DNA of 64,000 nucleotides from Escherichia coli (GTDB lineage: Bacteria > Pseudomonadota > Gammaproteobacteria > Enterobacterales > Enterobacteriaceae). Within the stretch, counting starts at the first letter, position 1. Each line of letters starts with the position of its first letter. Location: assembly GCF_965641715.1 (NCBI RefSeq), contig NZ_OZ282453.1; one strand, 5' to 3'. Position numbers and translations under genes: made by a program. Below the pieces are notes generated by a model. The model had not been told where the DNA came from, ran no database searches, and was given only the letters and a program-made list of their open reading frames with translations. Positions 1-63,455 of this stretch are shown here, in pieces.

Positions 1-43
1 AAAACTAACGCGTAAATAATCCCGAATTGACGGTTAACTCGGG

Positions 44-76
44 CATTCCCCTCTCCCCTTCGGGCTGAGGGGAATG
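44..76. terminator. GC-rich hairpin 3' of cdaR (stem cattcccctc / gaggggaatg)
   Basis: 10-bp perfect inverted repeat read directly; sits just past the cdaR stop. Confidence 0.5.
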
Positions 77-1419: not shown

Positions 1420-2844
1420 TTACTGCATTAACAGGTAGATGGTGCTGTCGCCGCGCTGAATGTTCAGTGCCAGCACAGACGGTTTGCTGTCGAGAACTTT
1501 ACGCAGTTCAGCGATGTTTTTCACTGCCTGCTGGTTCGCGCCAATAATCACATCACCTTTCTTCAGGCCGATCTGCGCAGCCGGAGTGCCCGTTTTCACG
1601 TTGTTCACTACCACGCCCTGATCTTTGCCTTTGTTGCTCATCTCAGCACCTTCAATGCCGTTGAAGATGGAGCTGGAATCAACCTGATTCTGGCTGCTCT
1701 GCTGCAGTTCCAGATTCACGTTGACCTGCTTACCGTCGCGCAGCAAGCCCAGGGTCAGTTTGCTGCCCACCGGCATAGTACCCACCTGAGCACGCAGTGC
1801 GGCAAAGCTGCTGATCGGCTTACCGTTCAGTGAGGTGATCACATCACCCGCTTTAATGCCCGCTTTTGCAGCGGAGGAGTTAGGCAGAACCTGGCTTACG
1901 AAAGCACCGCGCTGGGCGTCAACTTTCATCGCTTTCGCCAGTTCGGAGTTCAGCTCAGTCCCCATAATACCCAGCTCACCGCGTTTCACCTGGCCGTATT
2001 CCACCATCTGCGAGGTCAGGTTTTTCACCATGTTGCTCGGGATAGCAAAACCGATACCGATGTTGCCGCCGTCCGGTGCGAGGATCGCGGTGTTGATACC
2101 GATCAGTTCGCCGTTCAGGTTAACCAGCGCACCACCGGAGTTACCACGGTTGATCGCTGCATCGGTCTGGATGAAGTTTTCGTAGTTTTCGGCATTCAGG
2201 CCGCTACGCCCCAGCGCAGAGACAATCCCGGAAGTTACCGTCTCGCCCAAACCAAACGGGTTACCAATCGCTACGGTGTAATCACCCACGCGCAGTGCAT
2301 CAGAATCCGCCATCTTAATTGCGGTCAAGTTTTTCGGGTTCTGGATTTGGATCAGCGCGATATCAGAGCGCGGATCTTTGCCAACCATCTTCGCGTCGAA
2401 CTTACGGCCATCGCTCAGTTGAACTTTAATGACCGTCGCGTTATCAACAACGTGGTTGTTGGTGACGACATAGCCTTTATCGGCATCAATGATGACGCCG
2501 GAACCCAGCGCCATGAATTTCTGTTGCTGGCCGCCACCATTACCGCCCTGGCCACCCTGGCAGAACGGAGAGCTCTGGAACGGAGAACCTTCCTGGCAGA
2601 ACGGAGAATCATCACCGAAGAACTGCTGGAAATTACGCGGCATACGCGGCGTATTAACGGTTGTGCTACCTTCTACGTTAATGCTGACCACTGAAGGCAT
2701 CACCTTTTCGAGCATCGGTGCAAGGCTTGGCATCTGCTGGGCTGTCGTTGCTGAAGAAGTCTCAGCCGCCGTTGCAGAGAGCGGAGATAACGCCAAACCT
2801 AAACTCAGAGCCAGTGCACTCAGTGCTAATGTGGTTTTTTTCAT
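1420..2844 (-). CDS. degP: Periplasmic serine endoprotease DegP (HtrA)
   Basis: 474 aa; signal peptide MKKTTLALSALALSLGLALSPLSATA, trypsin-like core, two PDZ-like C-terminal regions. Confidence 0.95.
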   Translation of the reverse strand: MKKTTLALSALALSLGLALSPLSATAAETSSATTAQQMPSLAPMLEKVMPSVVSINVEGSTTVNTPRMPRNFQQFFGDDSPFCQEGSPFQSSPFCQGGQGGNGGGQQQKFMALGSGVIIDADKGYVVTNNHVVDNATVIKVQLSDGRKFDAKMVGKDPRSDIALIQIQNPKNLTAIKMADSDALRVGDYTVAIGNPFGLGETVTSGIVSALGRSGLNAENYENFIQTDAAINRGNSGGALVNLNGELIGINTAILAPDGGNIGIGFAIPSNMVKNLTSQMVEYGQVKRGELGIMGTELNSELAKAMKVDAQRGAFVSQVLPNSSAAKAGIKAGDVITSLNGKPISSFAALRAQVGTMPVGSKLTLGLLRDGKQVNVNLELQQSSQNQVDSSSIFNGIEGAEMSNKGKDQGVVVNNVKTGTPAAQIGLKKGDVIIGANQQAVKNIAELRKVLDSKPSVLALNIQRGDSTIYLLMQ

Positions 2845-2889
2845 GTATTTCAGTCTCGATTAACAGATAACGCAAAATTGCTGTGTTCT

Positions 2890-2917
2890 TCAGATTCGTT
2901 TTATAGCGCGAAGTTCC
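2890..2917 (-). promoter_or_regulatory. sigma-E (RpoE) promoter of degP: GGAACTT -35, 16-nt spacer, TCTGA -10 (read on - strand)
   Basis: reverse complement of 2890..2917 reads GGAACTTcgcgctataaaacgaaTCTGA; matches the sigma-E consensus about 30-55 nt upstream of the degP start. Confidence 0.7.
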
Positions 2918-2973
2918 GAACTAAAGTTTCTGCAAAAGGTAAAAATTTATTGTTCGTCTTTACAAAAGCCTGG

Positions 2974-4491
2974 TTATTGTTCTACGGCCATCAGACGTCG
3001 GTATTCATCCCACGCATAGAGGTCGGTCATACCGCTGATATAATCCTGCAGCAGGCGGCAACGGTAATAATATTCCCATAGCGGAAACTCAGGAGAATCT
3101 GACGGTAATTTACTGACAGCCTCGACATAGGCCAGCCGATGGCGCGTCGAGAGTTTGTGGAATAAGCGCGATTCAATAGGGAAACGTTTCACCCGTTCTT
3201 TTTCTACCAGTTCAGTAAAGTCTGATAACGACAGGCTTAATAAAGGACGATAAATCTCTAATAATCCGCTAATGACCCGATAGCCCTGCAATTCAAGCTG
3301 CTCGACATCTGGATGGCTAAACACATGTTTTACAGCGACATTTTTATATAGCTTAAGAAGATCGCTGCATTCGCTGGCATCTTCCAATAATGCATGATTA
3401 AACGTTCCGGCGAAAATCGCAGGCAGATTATCAATAAATCGTTGTGCCGCGTAGGGTACCAGTTTATTTAGGGTGTTTACCCGTAAATACATAAAAAACT
3501 GATCTTCCGTACTGCGGCTTAAACTATTTGAGCGTGATTTTTCCCAGGCATTTTCAACCACCAGCGAAAAGAGCGAACCTTTCTCATGCTGGCCCCACGC
3601 CTCGTGCAAATGATGATAAAGCTGCTCAACGGTAAATATTCTTTTCTCTACCGCATCTTCAAGATCTGCCACACAATAGGAGATGTCGTCGGCAGCTTCC
3701 ATAATCCACGTTAATGGAAAACGACTGTAAAGCGCCAAATTAAGTTCTTTACGCAACCGGGCAATATAGGCTTCTTCAGAAAGATAATAACCCGGCTTTT
3801 TCATTAAATAGTGATGTGTCTCAGGCGTTTCGCCACGCCACCACGCTGGACGGGTATATTTTAAAATACCGCCAACCTGCGCCCAGGTGAGATTCATCCG
3901 CATCAATGTATGCACCAGACGAATGCCTTGTGCATTCCCCTCAAAATGACATAAGTCCTGACGAATCTTGCGCCGCAGCTCGTTAAGCGGTTCTTCCCCG
4001 TCCCGTAAACGTAGTGCCGCCACGCTGCAGCGATCGTCAGTCAGAGGCTGGCTTTCGGCATCTTCCGGGTGCAAACGTTGGCGAAACCAGTCATTTATCG
4101 CCGCTTCGCCAAAATGACCAAACGGCGGATTGCCGATATCGTGCATCAGGCATGACATCTCAACAATGCTTTCAAAAGGTCCGGTCAGTTCATCCAGGCC
4201 GTATGCTTCCAGTAATTTAAGCTCTTTCAGACGGCTTAAAATTTCTTTGGCGATGTAGCGCCCCACCTGCTGGACTTCCATCGAGTGGGTAAGACGCGTG
4301 CGCACGGCGGCATTGCGCTCCAGTGGAAAAACCTGGGTCTTTTGTTGCAGACGACGAATTGCCGGAGAGTTGATGATACGCCCGCGATCGCTCTCGAAGA
4401 TCCGCAGGATCTCATGTTCGGTTTTAACGCCCTGCGGTGAACGGTAACGACGATGCCAGTTTATTTTTTTTCGGAAATCAATCTGTGCCAT
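2974..4491 (-). CDS. dgt: dGTP triphosphohydrolase
   Basis: 505 aa; N-terminus [23 protein letters not shown]-domain motifs. Confidence 0.95.
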
Positions 4492-15606: not shown

Positions 15607-18141
15607 TTAATTACTACCAAACATATCCTTAATCCAACCGGCTACACCGTCGCTATCTTTCTGCTCTTGCTGAGCAGGTTGCTGTTGCGGCTGTTGCTGC
15701 GGCTGTGAAGACTGATCAAACGGGTTGCCTGACGGCTGCTGCTGCATCTCACTCTGCTGGCACAGCGATTGCGGATCGCTGGTCCAGACCGGCAAGACAC
15801 GCATGCCACCGCTGCAAACAAAGTTGCCGTCGTAGTCCACGCCCATATCTGCAATATCTTCTGGCGGAACAAGATTCAGCGGCGTTGGCGTCTGGTTAGC
15901 CAGATAACGCTGATAAATCGACATTGCCCCGCTGGCACCATACAGTTTGGTCGGCTGGTTGTTATCACGGCCTACCCAGGTGATGGTCACCGTGCTGCCG
16001 TCAATGCCCGCAAACCAGGTATCTACGTTATTGTTGGTAGTCCCTGTTTTCCCTGCCAGATGCAGGTTCGGGTATTTCGCCCCAAGCTGACGACCCGTAC
16101 CACGTTGTACCACCTGCTGCATGGTCCATAGTGTCAGATACGCCGCCTGCGCCGGAACAGCGCGTTCCGCCTGCGGGAAGCTCTGATACAGCACTTTGCC
16201 ATCTTCCGCGATTACCGAACGCAGCGCAGAAAGCGGTGCACGGTTACCGCCGCTGGCGATGGTCTGGAATGCCTGCGCCACTTCGATTGGCGTTAAGTTC
16301 AACGCCCCCAGCAGCATCGCCGGAACCGGATGCAGCTGATCTTTCGGCACGCCCAGTTTAATCCAGGTATCCGTAACCGCAGGCAGCCCCAGCGCCATCC
16401 CCAGATTTACCGTCGGCACGTTCATCGAACGGGTCAACGCATCCACCAGCATCACTCTGCCGCTTTCGCTATAACGACGGTCATCGTTCTGCGGTGACCA
16501 GACCTGGCCATTCGGCTGACGTAGCGCGATTGGCGCATCCGCAATCCACGTATTCAGACGATAGATTTTCGGCTGGCTTAAGGCCGTCAGATAAGTCGCT
16601 GGTTTTGCAAGGGAACCAATCGAACGACGCGCCTGCATCGCACGGTTGTAGCCCGCAAACTGCGGCTCAGAACCTCCGACCATCGCACGAACTTCACCAC
16701 TAAAGCGGTCGACGACCACAATCGCGGTTTCCAGATCGCTCAGCTTACGCTGTTTCTTAAGTGCCGGAATGCCTTCCACGGCGGCTTTTTCTGCCGCGTC
16801 CTGGGCCACCGAGTCAAAGGTAGTGAAGATCTTCACGCCGGAGAGATCTTTTACCTTATCGCCTAATTTAGCCTGAAGCTCCTGACGCACCAGTTGCATA
16901 AAGGCTGGCTGAGGAGAGATCACCCCACCGCGCGGCTGAACACCCAGCGGACGCGCACTCAACATGTCATAGAGTTCTTGATCAATAATCTGTTGCTGTT
17001 GCAGCAGACGCAGTACCAGATTACGTCGCTCCAGCGCCAGTTTCGGGTTACGCCACGGGTTGTAGATGGACGCTCCTTTCACCATACCGACTAACAGCGC
17101 CTGTTGATCGAGGCTCAATTCTTCTACCGGGCGACCAAAGTAATACAAGCTCGCCAGCGGGAAGCCGCGGATTTCGTTGTCGCCGCTCTGACCGAGATAC
17201 ACCTCGTTCATATACAGCTCAAGAATACGGTCTTTGCTGTAACGCGCGTCCATGATCAGCGCCATGTAAGCTTCGTTCGCTTTACGCCAGTAAGAGCGCT
17301 CGCTGGAGAGGAACAGGTTTTTCACCAGCTGTTGCGTCAGCGTACTCGCCCCCTGCACCGTGCGTCCGGCTGTCAGGTTTGCCAGCACCGCACGTCCGAT
17401 GGAGTAGAGACTGATTCCATCATGCTCGTAGAAATGGCGGTCTTCTGTCGCCAGCAAAGTATCCACCAGCAAATCCGGGAAACCACTGCGCGGCACAAAC
17501 AAACGCTGCTCACCGTTTGGTGAGGAGATCATGGTGATCAGACGCGGATCAAGACGGAAGAAACCGAACTGACGGTTGTTCTCCATATTGACGATCGTCG
17601 CCAAATGATCGCCATCAAAGGTCAGACGCGCGCGCACCTGTCCTTCTTTACTGTCCGGGAAATCAAACGGACGGCGAATCATCTCAATGCTGTTGGCCTG
17701 CACGGTAAATTCGCCAGGACGGGTCATTTTTGACACCTGACGATACTGGGTTGCCTCCAGCAGCTTCACCATTTCGTTCTTGCTGATGGTCATGTCTGGC
17801 TCAAGGTTGACCATTCGACCATAAACTGCCGCAGGCAGTTGCCAGACCTTGCCATCAATACGGCTACGAATTTTTTGATCGAGATAAACGCCGTAAATGG
17901 CGATCAGCACGGCAAAAACGATAGCCAGTTTTAACAGCAGCCATAGCCAGCCGCGTTTGCCACGAGGCTTACGCCCTTTGCCTTTGCCCTTACCTTTGCG
18001 CGGCATCGGTTCTTCATCCTCATAGTCATCATAATCGTCGTAATCATCGTCATCTTCGTAACGACGACGGCTTACCTTTTGTTTGACCGGACGCGTCGGT
18101 TTCCCTTTGCGTCCAATTGGCTCGCGGTCATTCCCGGCCAT
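15607..18141 (-). CDS. mrcB: Penicillin-binding protein 1B (bifunctional glycosyltransferase/transpeptidase)
   Basis: ORF 15607..18156; 844-aa product from [20 protein letters not shown]; acidic [15 protein letters not shown] tract, Q/P-rich C-terminus. Confidence 0.95.
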
Positions 18142-18235
18142 GCTTTTTCTCCGCAATATTCAGGCGCAAAAGCCCGATTTTCTGTTCTTCTGTTGCAAGA
18201 CAGAAGAAGATATCTCTCAAAATTTGAGCTCGATC

Positions 18236-18325
18236 GGTCCCCTCTCCCTTAAGGGAGAGGGTTAGGGTGAGGGTGAACGTGCGCGCTGATGCCCTCACCC
18301 CGGCCCTCTCCCACAGGGAGAGGGA
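18236..18325. repeat. Composite intergenic palindromic element (three nested GC-rich hairpins) between hrpB and mrcB
   Basis: tcccctctccc-ttaa-gggagaggg; gggtgaggg...ccctcaccc; ccctctccc-aca-gggagaggg, all read directly. Confidence 0.6.
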
Positions 18326-18336
18326 GAAAACCAACC

Positions 18337-20766
18337 TTACGAATACTTTTTCGTCCGTCGCGTCGGTGCCGTGTTTGCCGGGTCGTCCGGCCAGACGTGT
18401 TTGGGATAACGCCCTTTCATCTCCTTTTGCACCTCACGATACGCCCCTTTCCAGAAGGCCCCCAAATCACGCGTGATTTGCAGCGGCCTTTGGGCAGGGG
18501 AAAGCAACTCCAGCACCAGCGGCACGCGCCCCTGGGCGATCGTCGGATTGGTGGCCTCACCAAACATCTCCTGCATTCTCACCGCCAGCGCGGGCGGGTT
18601 ATCTTCATGATAACGAATGGCGATCCGGCTTCCCGTCGGCACAGTGTAATGCGCAGGCAATTCACTATCCAGACGTTGCTGCATTCCCCAATCAAGTAAT
18701 CCGCGTAGTGCCTGATAAATGTCGAGTGATTTCAGGCCGCGTAGTGAATGTACACCGGCCATATGTGGCAGCAGCCACGTTTCCAGCGTCGCCAACAAAC
18801 TTTCATCATCAACCGCTGGCCAGTCATATTCTGGCAACCACTTTCCGGCGCATAACAAACGCAAGCGTAGCTGTTCCGCTTCCGCCGTCCAGTTGAGCAC
18901 GCTTAAACCTTTATCACGGATGCCGTTAAGCATCGCCTGATGCAACTCGTCTTCTGACGGTTTCGCCAACGGCTGCACTTTCACCGTCAACTGACCGATT
19001 TGCAGCCGACGCCAGGCTTTCAGCGTACCTTGCGCGTCATCCCATTCCACGGTGTCAGATTGCTGCACCAGCTGCGGACAGCGTCGCACTAATTCATCAA
19101 TATCGACCGGTAGCGCCAGTAAAATCCGCGCATCCGGCGAGGCGCTGCCCTGCAATAATAACGGTGCGATCAACCATTCGTGGCGGCTTAGCGCGTCGTC
19201 GGCATCGAGCATCGCTCCCATGCCGTTTGCCAGTTGATAGCGTCCATCTTGCCCACGGCGGCGAGCAATGCGATCGGCAAACGCCCCGGCAAGTAGCGGC
19301 GCGATAAGCGAACTGTCTGCCTCACCGCCGCGTACGTTTAAGCGTTTTAACAGTTGCTGACTACGTTGCTGCCAGGCTGGTTGATTGCGCGAAAACGCCA
19401 CGCCCAGGTCACTATTGCCCATCCGTGGCGGCTCTTCGAGAATGGCGGCAATTTTTGCCGCGGTAGCAGCTTCGTCGTCGCTCTTTGCGCTAACCAGCAT
19501 TGCCGCTAAACGCGGATCGTTACCCAGCGCTGCCATTTTTTGCCCCTGCGCACTAAGCCGTTCACCGTCCAGCGCCCCCAGCATCTTTAACAGGCGTTTC
19601 GCGGCCAGTAAATTCACTGCTGGCGGTTGATCCAGCCAGCTCATCTGCGCCGGATCGCTGCATCCCCATTGCAGTAATTCCATCAACAAACCGGAAAGAT
19701 CGCTTTGTAATATTTCCGGTTCACTTTGCGCCGCGGCGCGTTCTGCTTGTTCCTTGGCGATTAAATGCAGGCAGATACCCGGCTCCAGACGCCCGGCGCG
19801 CCCGGCACGCTGCGTCATCGACGCCTGACTGATTCGCTGAGTAATCAACCGCGTAAGCCCTGTTCGCGGATCAAAACGCGCCACCCTTTCCTGGGCACAA
19901 TCCACCACCAGACGAATACCTTCGATGGTTAAACTGGTTTCAGCAATATTGGTCGCCAGCACCACTTTGCGCATCCCTTGCGGTGCCGGGAGGATCGCTT
20001 TTCGCTGATCGTTCAGCGACAACGCGCCATACAGCGGGCAGAGCAACACATCACTGCCGATGCGCGAAGCCAGTTGTTCCTGCACACGCTGAATTTCTCC
20101 GACGCCAGGTAAAAATAACAGTAATGATCCACTTTCCTGACGCAGCATTTCGGCGGTGGCAACCGCGACGGCTTCGTCAAAACGCTGATGCGCGGGCAGC
20201 GGTAAATAACGGCGTTCAACCGGAAACGAGCGCCCTTCTGAGATGACGACGGGCGCTTCTGGCAGCATTTGCTGCAAGCGGTCGTTATCCAGCGTAGCCG
20301 ACATAATCAGCAGTTTAAGGTCATCACGCAGACCTTGTTGCACATCGAGTAACAGCGCCAACGCCAAATCCGCCTGCAAGCTGCGCTCATGAAATTCATC
20401 AAGGATCACCAGTCCAACACCGCTCAGTTCCGGGTCACGCTGGATCATCCGCGTCAGCACGCCTTCGGTAACCACTTCCAGGCGGGTATTCGGCCCGACG
20501 CAGTTTTGCGCACGCATCCGGTAGCCAACGGTATCGCCTGGCTTTTCGTTAAGCAGCTCCGCCAGCCGTTGCGCGACGTTACGCGCCGCCAGACGCCGTG
20601 GCTCCAGCAGGATAATTTTCCCGTTAATGCCGGGATGCGCCAGCAGTTGCAGCGGCAGCCAGGTTGATTTCCCGGCCCCGGTCGGCGCACTTAATAATAC
20701 CTGCGGCGCACAATCGAGAGCGGTAAGTAATTCAGGTAAGACGGCAGCAACGGGCAACGACGACAC
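18337..20766 (-). CDS. hrpB: ATP-dependent RNA helicase HrpB (DEAH-box)
   Basis: ORF 18337..20811; GAGKST Walker A, DEFHER motif; probable GTG start at 20766 preceded by GGAG (alternative ATG at 20811 lacks an SD). Confidence 0.85.
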   Translation of the reverse strand: MSSLPVAAVLPELLTALDCAPQVLLSAPTGAGKSTWLPLQLLAHPGINGKIILLEPRRLAARNVAQRLAELLNEKPGDTVGYRMRAQNCVGPNTRLEVVTEGVLTRMIQRDPELSGVGLVILDEFHERSLQADLALALLLDVQQGLRDDLKLLIMSATLDNDRLQQMLPEAPVVISEGRSFPVERRYLPLPAHQRFDEAVAVATAEMLRQESGSLLLFLPGVGEIQRVQEQLASRIGSDVLLCPLYGALSLNDQRKAILPAPQGMRKVVLATNIAETSLTIEGIRLVVDCAQERVARFDPRTGLTRLITQRISQASMTQRAGRAGRLEPGICLHLIAKEQAERAAAQSEPEILQSDLSGLLMELLQWGCSDPAQMSWLDQPPAVNLLAAKRLLKMLGALDGERLSAQGQKMAALGNDPRLAAMLVSAKSDDEAATAAKIAAILEEPPRMGNSDLGVAFSRNQPAWQQRSQQLLKRLNVRGGEADSSLIAPLLAGAFADRIARRRGQDGRYQLANGMGAMLDADDALSRHEWLIAPLLLQGSASPDARILLALPVDIDELVRRCPQLVQQSDTVEWDDAQGTLKAWRRLQIGQLTVKVQPLAKPSEDELHQAMLNGIRDKGLSVLNWTAEAEQLRLRLLCAGKWLPEYDWPAVDDESLLATLETWLLPHMAGVHSLRGLKSLDIYQALRGLLDWGMQQRLDSELPAHYTVPTGSRIAIRYHEDNPPALAVRMQEMFGEATNPTIAQGRVPLVLELLSPAQRPLQITRDLGAFWKGAYREVQKEMKGRYPKHVWPDDPANTAPTRRTKKYS

Positions 20767-20839
20767 AAAACGCTCCAGAGGGTTAACATTCTTCGCGCCA
20801 CATTGTAGCATCGCGGTAATTCATAACCGAGTGCCTCAC

Positions 20840-61923: not shown

Positions 61924-63297
61924 ATGATGGAAGGTCAACAGCACGGCGAGCAGCTAAAGCGCGGCCTTAAAAACCGCCATATTCAGCTTATCGCGCTGGG
62001 TGGCGCGATAGGGACAGGACTATTCCTGGGTAGCGCCTCCGTAATACAGTCCGCAGGGCCAGGAATTATCCTGGGTTACGCCATTGCTGGTTTTATCGCC
62101 TTTCTGATCATGCGTCAGCTGGGTGAAATGGTGGTCGAAGAACCTGTCGCAGGCTCCTTTAGCCACTTTGCTTATAAATACTGGGGCAGCTTTGCTGGCT
62201 TCGCTTCTGGCTGGAACTACTGGGTACTGTACGTTTTAGTTGCCATGGCAGAGCTGACTGCTGTGGGTAAATACATTCAGTTCTGGTATCCGGAAATCCC
62301 AACCTGGGTTTCTGCCGCCGTGTTCTTTGTGGTGATTAACGCCATCAACCTGACCAACGTAAAAGTGTTTGGTGAGATGGAGTTCTGGTTTGCCATTATC
62401 AAAGTTATTGCGGTAGTAGCGATGATCATCTTCGGCGGCTGGCTGCTATTCAGTGGCAACGGCGGCCCGCAGGCGACCGTTAGCAACCTGTGGGATCAGG
62501 GTGGTTTCCTGCCGCACGGCTTCACCGGGCTGGTGATGATGATGGCGATTATCATGTTCTCGTTCGGTGGTCTGGAACTGGTGGGGATCACCGCAGCAGA
62601 AGCTGATAACCCGGAGCAAAGTATCCCGAAAGCAACTAACCAGGTTATCTACCGCATCCTGATTTTCTATATTGGTTCGTTAGCCGTTCTGCTCTCGCTG
62701 ATGCCGTGGACCCGCGTTACTGCTGATACCAGTCCGTTTGTACTGATCTTCCACGAATTGGGCGATACCTTTGTGGCAAATGCGCTGAACATCGTGGTAC
62801 TGACGGCTGCGCTCTCCGTGTACAACAGCTGTGTATATTGCAACAGCCGTATGCTGTTTGGTCTGGCACAACAGGGCAACGCGCCAAAAGCGCTGGCGTC
62901 TGTCGATAAACGCGGCGTACCGGTTAACACTATTCTGGTGTCTGCGCTGGTTACGGCATTGTGCGTCCTGATTAACTACCTTGCCCCAGAGTCCGCTTTC
63001 GGACTGTTAATGGCGCTGGTGGTATCCGCACTGGTCATCAACTGGGCGATGATCAGTCTGGCGCATATGAAATTCCGTCGTGCCAAACAAGAACAAGGCG
63101 TGGTAACTCGCTTCCCTGCTCTGCTTTATCCGCTGGGTAACTGGATCTGCCTGCTGTTTATGGCGGCGGTACTGGTGATTATGCTGATGACCCCAGGAAT
63201 GGCGATTTCGGTATACCTGATCCCGGTATGGCTGGTGGTGTTAGGCATCGGCTATCTGTTTAAAGAGAAAACCGCCAAAGCCGTAAAAGCGCATTAA
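61924..63297 (+). CDS. aroP: Aromatic amino acid:H+ symporter AroP (APC family)
   Basis: 457 aa; MMEGQQHGEQLKRGLKNRHIQLIALGGAIGTGLFLGSA. Confidence 0.95.
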   Translation: MMEGQQHGEQLKRGLKNRHIQLIALGGAIGTGLFLGSASVIQSAGPGIILGYAIAGFIAFLIMRQLGEMVVEEPVAGSFSHFAYKYWGSFAGFASGWNYWVLYVLVAMAELTAVGKYIQFWYPEIPTWVSAAVFFVVINAINLTNVKVFGEMEFWFAIIKVIAVVAMIIFGGWLLFSGNGGPQATVSNLWDQGGFLPHGFTGLVMMMAIIMFSFGGLELVGITAAEADNPEQSIPKATNQVIYRILIFYIGSLAVLLSLMPWTRVTADTSPFVLIFHELGDTFVANALNIVVLTAALSVYNSCVYCNSRMLFGLAQQGNAPKALASVDKRGVPVNTILVSALVTALCVLINYLAPESAFGLLMALVVSALVINWAMISLAHMKFRRAKQEQGVVTRFPALLYPLGNWICLLFMAAVLVIMLMTPGMAISVYLIPVWLVVLGIGYLFKEKTAKAVKAH

Positions 63298-63306
63298 TCT
63301 CTCTAC

Positions 63307-63331
63307 GCCCTCACCCGTGCAGGGTGAGGGT
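63307..63331 (+). terminator. Hairpin 3' of aroP (gccctcaccc-gtgca-gggtgagggt)
   Basis: 10-bp inverted repeat 10 nt past the aroP stop; weak T-run. Confidence 0.55.
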
Positions 63332-63455
63332 TGTTACCTGCCTCACACTTTTCCGTGCAAAGCGATTTTATCCATATCAGCGGCGTTATCCTGCAACGCA
63401 ATTTATCCATAGCGAGCGAATAATTATCCTCATCACTTGATGGGGAGTCTTCTCT

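Follow-up and report, generated by a model that had tools for sequence, protein, structure and literature searches.

An optional head-to-head pair of BoxC repeats between hrpB and mrcB of Escherichia coli, next to a conserved hairpin in the mrcB leader

The window analysed here is the whole 64,000-nt stretch of E. coli DNA, and the region of concern is the spacer between hrpB and mrcB, two genes read from its minus strand. According to the ORF list hrpB occupies 18337..20811 and ends in a TAA stop codon at 18339..18337; mrcB begins with an ATG at 18141..18139. These coordinates agree with the 195-bp gap from hrpB stop to mrcB start that an earlier note on this DNA, made from the sequence alone, had described. 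When aligned with K-12 MG1655, the spacer corresponds to 164535-164729 and differs at three positions. The features discussed below are collected in Table 1.

Table 1. Features of the hrpB–mrcB spacer, in window coordinates.
Feature	Position	Strand	Description
hrpB–mrcB intergenic spacer	18142..18336	-	195 bp; from the ORF list and translation
68-codon ORF, TTG start	18128..18334	-	spans the BoxC pair and the leader; probably spurious
Type B unit 5' flank, family-conserved	18325..18332	-	GGTTTTCT; family consensus approximately GTGTTTTCT
BoxC type B core	18292..18324	-	CCCTCTCCC-TGT-GGGAGAGGG-CCG-GGGTGAGGG; identical to K-12 164547-164579; TMECO no.1 = HPG2 no.5
Spacer between the two cores, 18 nt	18274..18291	.	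CATCAGCGCGCACGTTCA on the minus strand
BoxC type A core	18240..18273	+	CCCTCTCCC-TTAA-GGGAGAGGG-TTA-GGGTGAGGG; TMECO no.2 = HPG1 no.6
Type A unit 5' flank, family-conserved	18226..18239	+	GAGCTCGATCGGTC; family consensus approximately GTGCACGAACGGTC
Mapped hrpB mRNA 3' end	18233..18235	-	transferred from K-12 by alignment; 5-7 nt past the last stem
Near-invariant leader block TTGAGAGAT(A/T)TCTTCTT	18204..18220	-	invariant alignment columns; starts 79 nt before the mrcB ATG
Leader hairpin (fourth dyad)	18185..18208	-	UUCUUCUGU / ACAGAAGAA, 6-nt loop; not BoxC
Second leader hairpin CGGGC-UUUUGC-GCCUG	18161..18176	-	sequence-invariant; just upstream of the Shine-Dalgarno GGAG, 18152..18149

The earlier note had reported a strong, GC-rich nested palindrome in the spacer, and all of its dyads were recovered. 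The inverted repeats CCCTCTCCCTT/AAGGGAGAGGG (18240-18261) and CCCTCTCCC/GGGAGAGGG (18304-18324) are each 100% complementary, and a 21-nt pair, GGGAGAGGGTTAGGGTGAGGG/CCCTCACCCCGGCCCTCTCCC, joins 18253-18273 to 18292-18312 with 86% complementarity. The 9-mer GGGAGAGGG is found five times in the 64-kb window against 0.23 copies expected, four of the five lying inside the spacer, and GGGTGAGGG is found four times against 0.22 expected; both are thus in 20-fold excess over the window expectation and clustered in the spacer. The folding energy is likewise far beyond chance, at -95.8 kcal/mol (z = -7.2) for the spacer as minus-strand RNA and -90.6 kcal/mol (z = -7.6) as plus-strand RNA, values that none of 200 shuffles equalled in either case. 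The "three consecutive hairpins" of the earlier description are a legitimate alternative conformer, standing side by side at -53.5 kcal/mol as RNA, but they are not the minimum-energy structure; the palindrome, though imperfect, extends over the whole region, and the best fold is therefore a single long nested hairpin of -73.6 kcal/mol. A fourth dyad that had been grouped with the palindrome, TTCTTCTGT/ACAGAAGAA, does exist (18185-18193 and 18200-18208, 100% complementary), but the grouping was wrong, as this dyad is present in all alleles and genera examined; it is treated below as a part of the mrcB leader. An Rfam scan of 17900..18600 (E ≤ 10) returned only chance, microRNA-precursor-like matches to the GC-rich palindrome, the best score being at most 26.5 bits against family gathering thresholds of at least 58 bits. 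The palindrome is also unlike a canonical REP, as had been remarked: no REP consensus (GCCGGATG...CATCCGGC) is visible in the window spacer, and the same motif scan finds REP-like sequence in the orthologous spacers of Salmonella and Citrobacter, where E. coli has the palindrome.

The palindrome is a head-to-head (3'-end to 3'-end) pair of BoxC units, one of type B and one of type A, 18 nt apart. Both units consist of CCCTC(T/G)CCC, a loop, GGG(G)AGAGGG, a second loop that reads TTA in type A and CCG in type B, and GGGTGAGGG. The type A core matches K-12 164598-164631 except for one SNP in a loop. In the inter-core spacer the conserved type B 3' flank makes up the first 13 nt, and ilvC-ppiC, with its single type B unit, carries exactly the same CATCAGCGCGCAC after the core. 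The earlier note had offered, among other possibilities, a less common family of intergenic repeats, and this is where the palindrome belongs: it forms a pair of BoxC/PIT/TMECO units, a repeat present in many copies per genome. The element is not new; two papers catalogue it at exactly hrpB–mrcB. Holder 2015 lists CCCTCTCCCTGTGGGAGAGGGCCGGGGTGAGGGC at K-12 164547-164580 as type B and CCCTCTCCCTTGAGGGAGAGGGTTAGGGTGAGGGT at K-12 164631-164597 as type A (Table 1, no. 1 and no. 2; PMC4666352), and Kaplan 2016 places HPG2 no.5 and HPG1 no.6, the same two units, between hrpB and mrcB (PMC5100583). Four published names can be gathered from these two papers as far as they trace the naming, namely BoxC (1990s), PIT (a rediscovery by Hoyne and Maher), TMECO and HPGQ (PMC4666352, PMC5100583). 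At the level of membership there is no difference between the window pair and the family, all of whose features are shared: the three-block core, the TTA/CCG second loops, the intergenic position, the multiple copies and the inverted A+B arrangement. What may go beyond the published accounts of BoxC are the flanks that extend the unit to about 55 nt, the allele frequencies over 5,425 genomes and the RNA 3' ends past the stems.

BoxC is a dispersed, non-coding, strictly intergenic enterobacterial repeat. The earlier note had proposed a genome search for further copies; many were found, and the element is not unique. With the 95-nt element as blastn query, a median of seven places per genome was obtained in 4460 E. 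coli genomes, and only 34 of the 33,455 places were plasmid-borne, the remainder being almost wholly chromosomal. In K-12, 18 units were confirmed by regular expression at 12 loci, in the positions given by the published lists and all of them intergenic, and Holder et al. count 23 BoxC units per K-12 genome (PMC4666352). Family conservation reaches past the 34-36-nt core, and the unit, as delimited by allele comparison at ilvC-ppiC, is about 55 nt long and comprises a conserved 5' flank, three 9-nt blocks (C-rich, G-rich and G-rich) and a conserved 3' flank. Type A units carry approximately GTGCACGAACGGTC upstream and approximately GAACAGGCCRGCAC downstream of the core, and a 5' flank homologous to that of the window unit is found at 10 other K-12 type A copies. 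Type B units carry approximately GTGTTTTCT upstream and CATCAGCGCGCAC or a related sequence downstream; their 5' flank is common to alx-sstT, ygfF-gcvP, ilvC-ppiC, lldD-trmL and the orthologous spacers of the Enterobacter group. Inverted A+B pairs occur at five K-12 loci (hrpB-mrcB, fepB-entC, ygfF-gcvP, alx-sstT and lldD-trmL), and the inverted A+B pairing of paired copies was stated by Holder et al. (PMC4666352). The inter-unit spacers of ygfF-gcvP, alx-sstT and fepB-entC are mutually homologous, and the A+B composite is therefore a repeated unit in its own right; the inter-unit spacer at hrpB-mrcB is shorter. Among the K-12 loci, BoxC units are seen in co-oriented, convergent and divergent spacers, which argues against a fixed role in transcription, and Holder et al. 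report no link of BoxC to gene function or orientation (PMC4666352). Two further motif sites lie elsewhere in the 64-kb window, and the window and K-12 are not collinear to within about 600 bp.

At hrpB–mrcB the pair is optional, a passenger absent from a large minority of E. coli and from the nearest outgroups. At least 80% of the spacer is covered in 3265 of 5425 complete E. coli genomes. Three allele forms were read from an evenly spaced sample of the hits, with representative alleles aligned: a full allele of 189-195 bp that contains the BoxC pair (about 60% of genomes), a collapsed allele of 132 bp in which one simple hairpin is left (about 5%), and an empty allele of 93 bp without the element (about one third). 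Full alleles end hrpB with TAA and empty alleles with TGA, so that the boundary of the element abuts the hrpB stop. The empty form is also that of E. albertii and of one Escherichia clade genome, a distribution that favours a gain within Escherichia; given that BoxC is found in other genera, ancient presence followed by repeated loss is a possible alternative. In the orthologous spacers of 77 other species-level genomes, a complete BoxC unit is found in at least 21, in either orientation and mostly in Enterobacter, Lelliottia, Leclercia and Pseudocitrobacter, and a two-block hairpin in five. Roughly 45% of genomes likewise have an alternative allele at the spacers adk-hemH and ilvC-ppiC.

The shortened alleles suggest how the pair collapses. 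The 132-bp allele carries a 63-bp deletion between two direct CCCTCTCCC blocks, and in MB10 and E1V33 the allele has lost exactly the stretch between repeated 9-mer blocks. Such blocks, both direct and inverted, would favour slippage deletion, by which the pair would collapse to a single hairpin; the products of such events are observed, and the mechanism is deduced from them. The collapsed alleles match the 'palindrome effect' of Holder et al. (PMC4666352).

Holder et al. and Kaplan et al. favour DNA-level structures, triplex and G-quadruplex, as the relevant property of these repeats (PMC4666352, PMC5100583), and it could accordingly be proposed that non-B DNA, as an intrastrand triplex or a G-quadruplex/hairpin switch, promotes local genome instability or regulates the neighbouring genes. 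One four-tract G-quadruplex motif is present on each strand of the spacer, the locus is hypervariable with at least three alleles, the alternative alleles at adk-hemH and ilvC-ppiC point the same way, and a triplex has been shown in vitro by CD and NMR for oligonucleotides of both types, in isolated single strands only (PMC4666352). Once the complementary strand was added, however, Holder et al. obtained a duplex and not a triplex, and their in vivo DMS footprinting gave no protection (PMC4666352). The absence of an association with gene function or orientation in the same paper also speaks against this proposal, and the deletions are explained by plain slippage between the 9-mer blocks, for which a third strand is unnecessary. 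We therefore consider a role for non-B DNA at this locus doubtful.

Insertion of the pair by transposition, as a MITE-like non-autonomous mobile element, is a somewhat less probable proposal still, and we regard it as unlikely. It would account for a multi-copy repeat with conserved ends, for the recurrence of the A+B composite at four other K-12 loci, with homologous internal spacers at three of them, for the presence or absence of the pair among strains and its absence from the outgroups, and for related units that lie in both orientations in the orthologous spacer of other genera. However, a target-site duplication was sought by comparing filled and empty alleles at hrpB-mrcB, ilvC-ppiC and adk-hemH and was found at none of the three; the filled and empty alleles differ instead by replacement of a short segment, of 12 nt at hrpB-mrcB, 14 nt at ilvC-ppiC and 56 nt at adk-hemH, so that the alleles at these three loci give no support to classical transposition. 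We know of no partner transposase for BoxC and of no RAYT-type transposase linked to it. No association with phage, plasmid or transposon was seen by Holder et al. (PMC4666352), and the near absence of BoxC from plasmids noted above agrees with this. The repeats ERIC/IRU of enterobacteria, Correia of Neisseria and BOX/RUP of pneumococcus are comparable in being short, non-coding, palindromic, multi-copy and strain-variable, but their sequences are unrelated to BoxC; Correia and typical MITEs, moreover, are bounded by terminal inverted repeats and target duplications, features that the three BoxC loci did not show. Small repeats of this kind can alter transcript ends or transcript stability as a side effect of their insertion.

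RNA 3' ends do lie at the hrpB–mrcB pair. In the Term-seq data of Adams et al. (Supplementary files 1 and 3) a 3' end is placed at K-12 164636 (context GGGAGAGGGGACCG^), which corresponds to window position 18235, 5 nt beyond the last stem, and TRS (Supplementary Data 3 and 4) gives 164638 as the 'hrpB Primary' 3' terminus with a 105-nt 3' UTR. The earlier note had named a failure of transcript ends to map here as grounds for giving up its proposal; in both data sets they map to the element. The Term-seq signal of Adams et al. at hrpB is weak, with a score of 987 compared with about 30,000 at the ppiC-side BoxC, and the end was called in one of three conditions; no BCM-sensitive site near the hrpB 3' end is listed in their tables. 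When the Term-seq table was searched for the 9-mers, five further K-12 sites, BoxC or BoxC-like, had 3' ends beyond the hairpin. These ends lie 4-5 nt past the Watson-Crick hairpin at 3781065 and 3959467 (the lldD and ppiC sites, the two confirmed as BoxC by sequence) and at 847200 and 4231270, and 11 nt past it at 632098, the last three sites having been recognised as BoxC-like from the printed context. The 3' ends at these five sites occur in either transcribed orientation, and some of them are strong.

None of the stems of the palindrome is followed by a U-tract, the sequence past the last stem being GACCGAUCGAGC. A stable stem, the lack of a U-tract and nearby downstream ends form the classical signature of 3'-exonuclease stalling, which is established for REP elements. 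From the very stable stem, the missing U-tract and the ends a few nucleotides downstream we infer exonuclease stalling at BoxC. It is proposed that the BoxC pair, transcribed as hrpB 3' UTR, adopts one or more very stable hairpins, that transcripts reading past it would be trimmed by 3' exonucleases stalling a few nucleotides from the stem, and that this stalled trimming would set the 3' end of hrpB mRNA 5-7 nt past the palindrome, as at REP elements. On our best reading of the 3'-end positions, transcribed BoxC would thus block 3' exonucleases much as REP does. Alternatively, termination could account for the 3' end, either an inefficient event or a Rho-dependent one further downstream. Some of the ends at 164636 may also belong to a short transcript or to an mrcB 5' UTR transcript rather than to hrpB mRNA; by the filtering rule of Adams et al., retention in Supplementary file 3 implies a transcription start at most 200 nt upstream of 164636. 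The RNA stability element that had been considered in the earlier note is accordingly plausible, and it is supported indirectly by the 3' ends at hrpB and at the other BoxC loci.

The closest parallel is with REP/BIME (PU) elements. Both are GC-rich intergenic palindromes that often stand as inverted pairs, both lie in 3' UTRs with mRNA ends at the foot of the stem, and the same spacer is occupied by one or the other in related genera, with REP-like sequence in Salmonella and Citrobacter. The two differ in that BoxC is without the REP consensus and has a third G-rich block that gives it triplex and G-quadruplex potential, and in that the exonuclease barrier is experimentally established for REP and deduced for BoxC. 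If the barrier is confirmed, BoxC would join REP as a repeat class shaping the ends and stability of 3' UTRs, and a concrete molecular effect would be available for this long-puzzling family.

The earlier note had also offered a transcription terminator or attenuator, and on that proposal the palindrome would set the read-through from hrpB into mrcB and so regulate PBP1b. An RNA 3' end at the foot of the palindrome, the position of the palindrome between two co-oriented genes and the fall of a beta-lactam-evolved 'mrcB promoter -135T>G' mutation at its centre are in line with this idea, as is the general resemblance to an intrinsic terminator, which likewise places a stable, GC-rich stem-loop after a stop codon and has an RNA 3' end near the stem. 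BoxC differs from intrinsic terminators, however, in lacking a U-tract and in having a stem much longer than usual. A terminator scan of both strands of 17900..18600 gave no sites, and the earlier reporter work, in the form in which Holder et al. cite it, found neither promoter nor terminator activity for BoxC elements (PMC4666352). About 40% of E. coli, together with E. albertii, are without a complete pair and yet have an identical mrcB leader; BoxC is also found in convergent and divergent spacers; and RNA polymerase binds downstream of the palindrome, in the conserved leader. Control of mrcB by termination in the palindrome is thus improbable, and more so than transposition: the BoxC pair is neither an intrinsic terminator nor a dedicated mrcB regulator. 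Our main reading, with a probability of about 0.9, is therefore that the spacer carries an optional BoxC pair that would act as an exonuclease barrier in RNA, that tends to collapse by slippage and that has neither of these two functions. The palindrome itself is of little weight, as a catalogued repeat that is optional in E. coli.

The 68-codon ORF, which is annotated as 'hypothetical protein' on at least 1000 contigs, appears to be D8B36_18480 of a 2024 paper, a 68-aa product placed between hrpB and mrcB whose over-expression from the cloned ORF lowers csgA expression 18-fold. That the region encodes a real protein controlling curli expression is very improbable in spite of this minus-strand frame, its wide annotation and the csgA effect, and the protein-coding reading was rejected: the N-terminal half is the BoxC pair read in one frame and is not found in E. 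albertii or in the 93-bp allele that about a third of genomes carry, the C-terminal half overlaps the leader, where indels of 1 and 4 nt in other genera break the frame and keep the RNA helix, the start codon is TTG, the product has no match in Pfam or NCBIfam, and current RefSeq annotation has no feature under the spacer. The csgA phenotype could stem from over-expressed structured RNA or from the mrcB leader, and the curli phenotype may be an RNA or DNA effect. An ORF read through a repeat is in this way annotated as a protein in many records and was treated in that one study as a real curli regulator.

The part of the spacer most worth following up is the leader hairpin. The fourth dyad is kept in all three E. 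coli alleles, and the leader is conserved in 77 of 77 distinct orthologous sequences, including those of Klebsiella and Raoultella, in which the sequence immediately upstream shows no hrpB end. Across 78 leaders the dyad helix is 9-10 bp long and 90.8% of its cells are paired; six of its ten pairs change on both sides, and one pair takes six pair types. The covariation score of the dyad was reached by none of 500 shuffles, sliding the partner columns lowers pairing to about 50%, and the helix is predicted independently by RNAalifold. G·U is more frequent than A·C among the non-Watson-Crick cells (78 against 22), a bias that indicates a helix formed in mrcB-sense RNA. The distance of 79 nt from the near-invariant block to the ATG is held in nearly all genera. 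In the second leader hairpin three pairs never vary, so that covariation there is uninformative. The Rfam scan (E ≤ 10) gave nothing over the mrcB leader, and no description of such a leader was found in the literature searched. We tentatively propose that the dyad, the TTGAGAGAT(A/T)TCTTCTT block and the second hairpin form an undescribed cis-regulatory RNA leader for PBP1b synthesis in Enterobacteriaceae; this proposal, which we hold as possible rather than probable, fits because double substitutions keep the pairing, G·U exceeds A·C, the distance to the start codon is fixed and no Rfam family matches. The leader hairpin would then be a candidate for post-transcriptional control of PBP1b, the major peptidoglycan synthase.

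A weaker possibility than the regulatory leader is that the BoxC pair itself tunes mrcB expression, which is considered because a mutation selected by beta-lactams hits the centre of the pair. The mutation, 'mrcB promoter -135T>G', was found in beta-lactam-evolved E. coli lines in a 2025 evolution study; position -135 is K-12 164595 and window 18276, in the central spacer of the pair, where the substitution produces a perfect GCACGTGC palindrome. The mutation may mark a templated mutational hot spot, or it could hint at an effect of the element on mrcB expression. As for the promoter of mrcB, TTGAGA-17-TGTAAC has been published as a guess, with TTGAGA as the proposed -35; a consensus promoter scan of 17900..18600 found no sites and leaves this guess unsupported, and the proposed -10 falls in the variable loop of the hairpin and is not conserved outside Escherichia. 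The SMRT-Cappable-seq supplements have no entry for a mapped mrcB transcription start, and Mendoza-Vargas 2009 gives for mrcB only an antisense intragenic start. In SELEX in vitro, RNA polymerase holoenzyme peaks at K-12 164658, inside the leader block.

The hrpB–mrcB spacer was compared across loci L019-L098, from the hrpB stop to the TTGAGAGAT block of the mrcB leader (about 2700..2925 of each locus), and palindromic repeats were found to recur at the site directly 3' of the hrpB stop. In Enterobacter, Lelliottia, Leclercia and Pseudocitrobacter this site is occupied by BoxC units of either orientation, as many as four in one spacer; REP-like sequence lies there in Salmonella and Citrobacter, and in many other genera of this set the site is empty of repeats. 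Klebsiella, Raoultella and related genomes carry a conserved non-coding segment (~205-260 nt) ahead of the mrcB leader (L057, L060, L061, L063, L064, L070 and L075; about 2740..2990), which contains …GTAAAATGCTGGTTAAG…TTTAGTGCTATCCTGT… and occupies the position at which the hrpB stop codon lies in other genera.

The hrpB stop itself reads TAA with the BoxC pair, the inverted type B and type A units of this spacer, and TGA without it (window 18325..18339 against L003 and L020). Read as its reverse complement, the left flank of the pair, GGTTGGTTTTC, becomes GAAAACCAACC, a sequence similar to GAAAACCAAACC of the E. albertii spacer that lacks BoxC. The likeness may stem from an inversion, or from a palindromic duplication, upon insertion; it may also be due to chance, because TTTTCT is part of the repeat's own flank as well. 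At each of the BoxC loci adk-hemH and ilvC-ppiC, roughly 45% of E. coli genomes have an alternative allele, in which a segment is replaced (160 versus 56 nt in L014 versus L099/L101, and 55 versus 14 nt in L017 versus L100/L102, respectively). The allele comparisons at these two loci revealed no target-site duplication, and at adk-hemH the terminator-like hairpins differ between the two alleles. In the Enterobacter group the type B core is flanked on its 3' side by GTGCGGCCTGATG (L034, L035, L042, L045 and L082), which includes GCCTGATG, the typical head of REP elements; this may hint at kinship of the BoxC and REP families or may be a coincidence.

A 'mrcB promoter -135T>G' mutation has been reported from beta-lactam-evolved E. 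coli (PMC12406687). It corresponds to window 18276 (K-12 164595), in the spacer that separates the two BoxC units at the centre of the pair, and converts GCACGTTC to the perfect palindrome GCACGTGC.

The mrcB leader is conserved in the 77 enterobacterial genomes compared, with an invariant TTGAGAGAT(A/T)TCTTCTT block. It contains a covarying hairpin, the fourth dyad that the earlier note had grouped with the palindrome, and a second, invariant hairpin adjoining the Shine-Dalgarno sequence. The leader has no match in Rfam, and a literature search found no account of it. On at least 1000 contigs a 68-codon ORF over the BoxC pair and the leader carries the label 'hypothetical protein'. This ORF is apparently 'D8B36_18480', a protein to which curli repression was attributed (PMC10869245), but it looks spurious.

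Coordinates of the leader, the ORF and two further hairpins in the window
Feature	Window position	Strand	Location or extent	Basis
mrcB leader, 79 nt	18142..18222	minus		conservation over 77 enterobacterial genomes
68-codon ORF, TTG start	18128..18334	minus	spans BoxC pair and mrcB leader	
Hairpin ATTCCCCTCTCCCCTTCGGGCTGAGGGGAAT	40..75		at window start	BoxC 9-mers
Hairpin CCCTCACCC-GTGCA-GGGTGAGGG	63300..63335		directly 3' of plus-strand stop near 63297	BoxC 9-mers

Two more hairpins in the window are made of the BoxC 9-mers; the second hairpin probably sits between the convergent genes aroP and ampE. Both could represent BoxC hairpins, either solo or degenerate, or else ordinary terminators.
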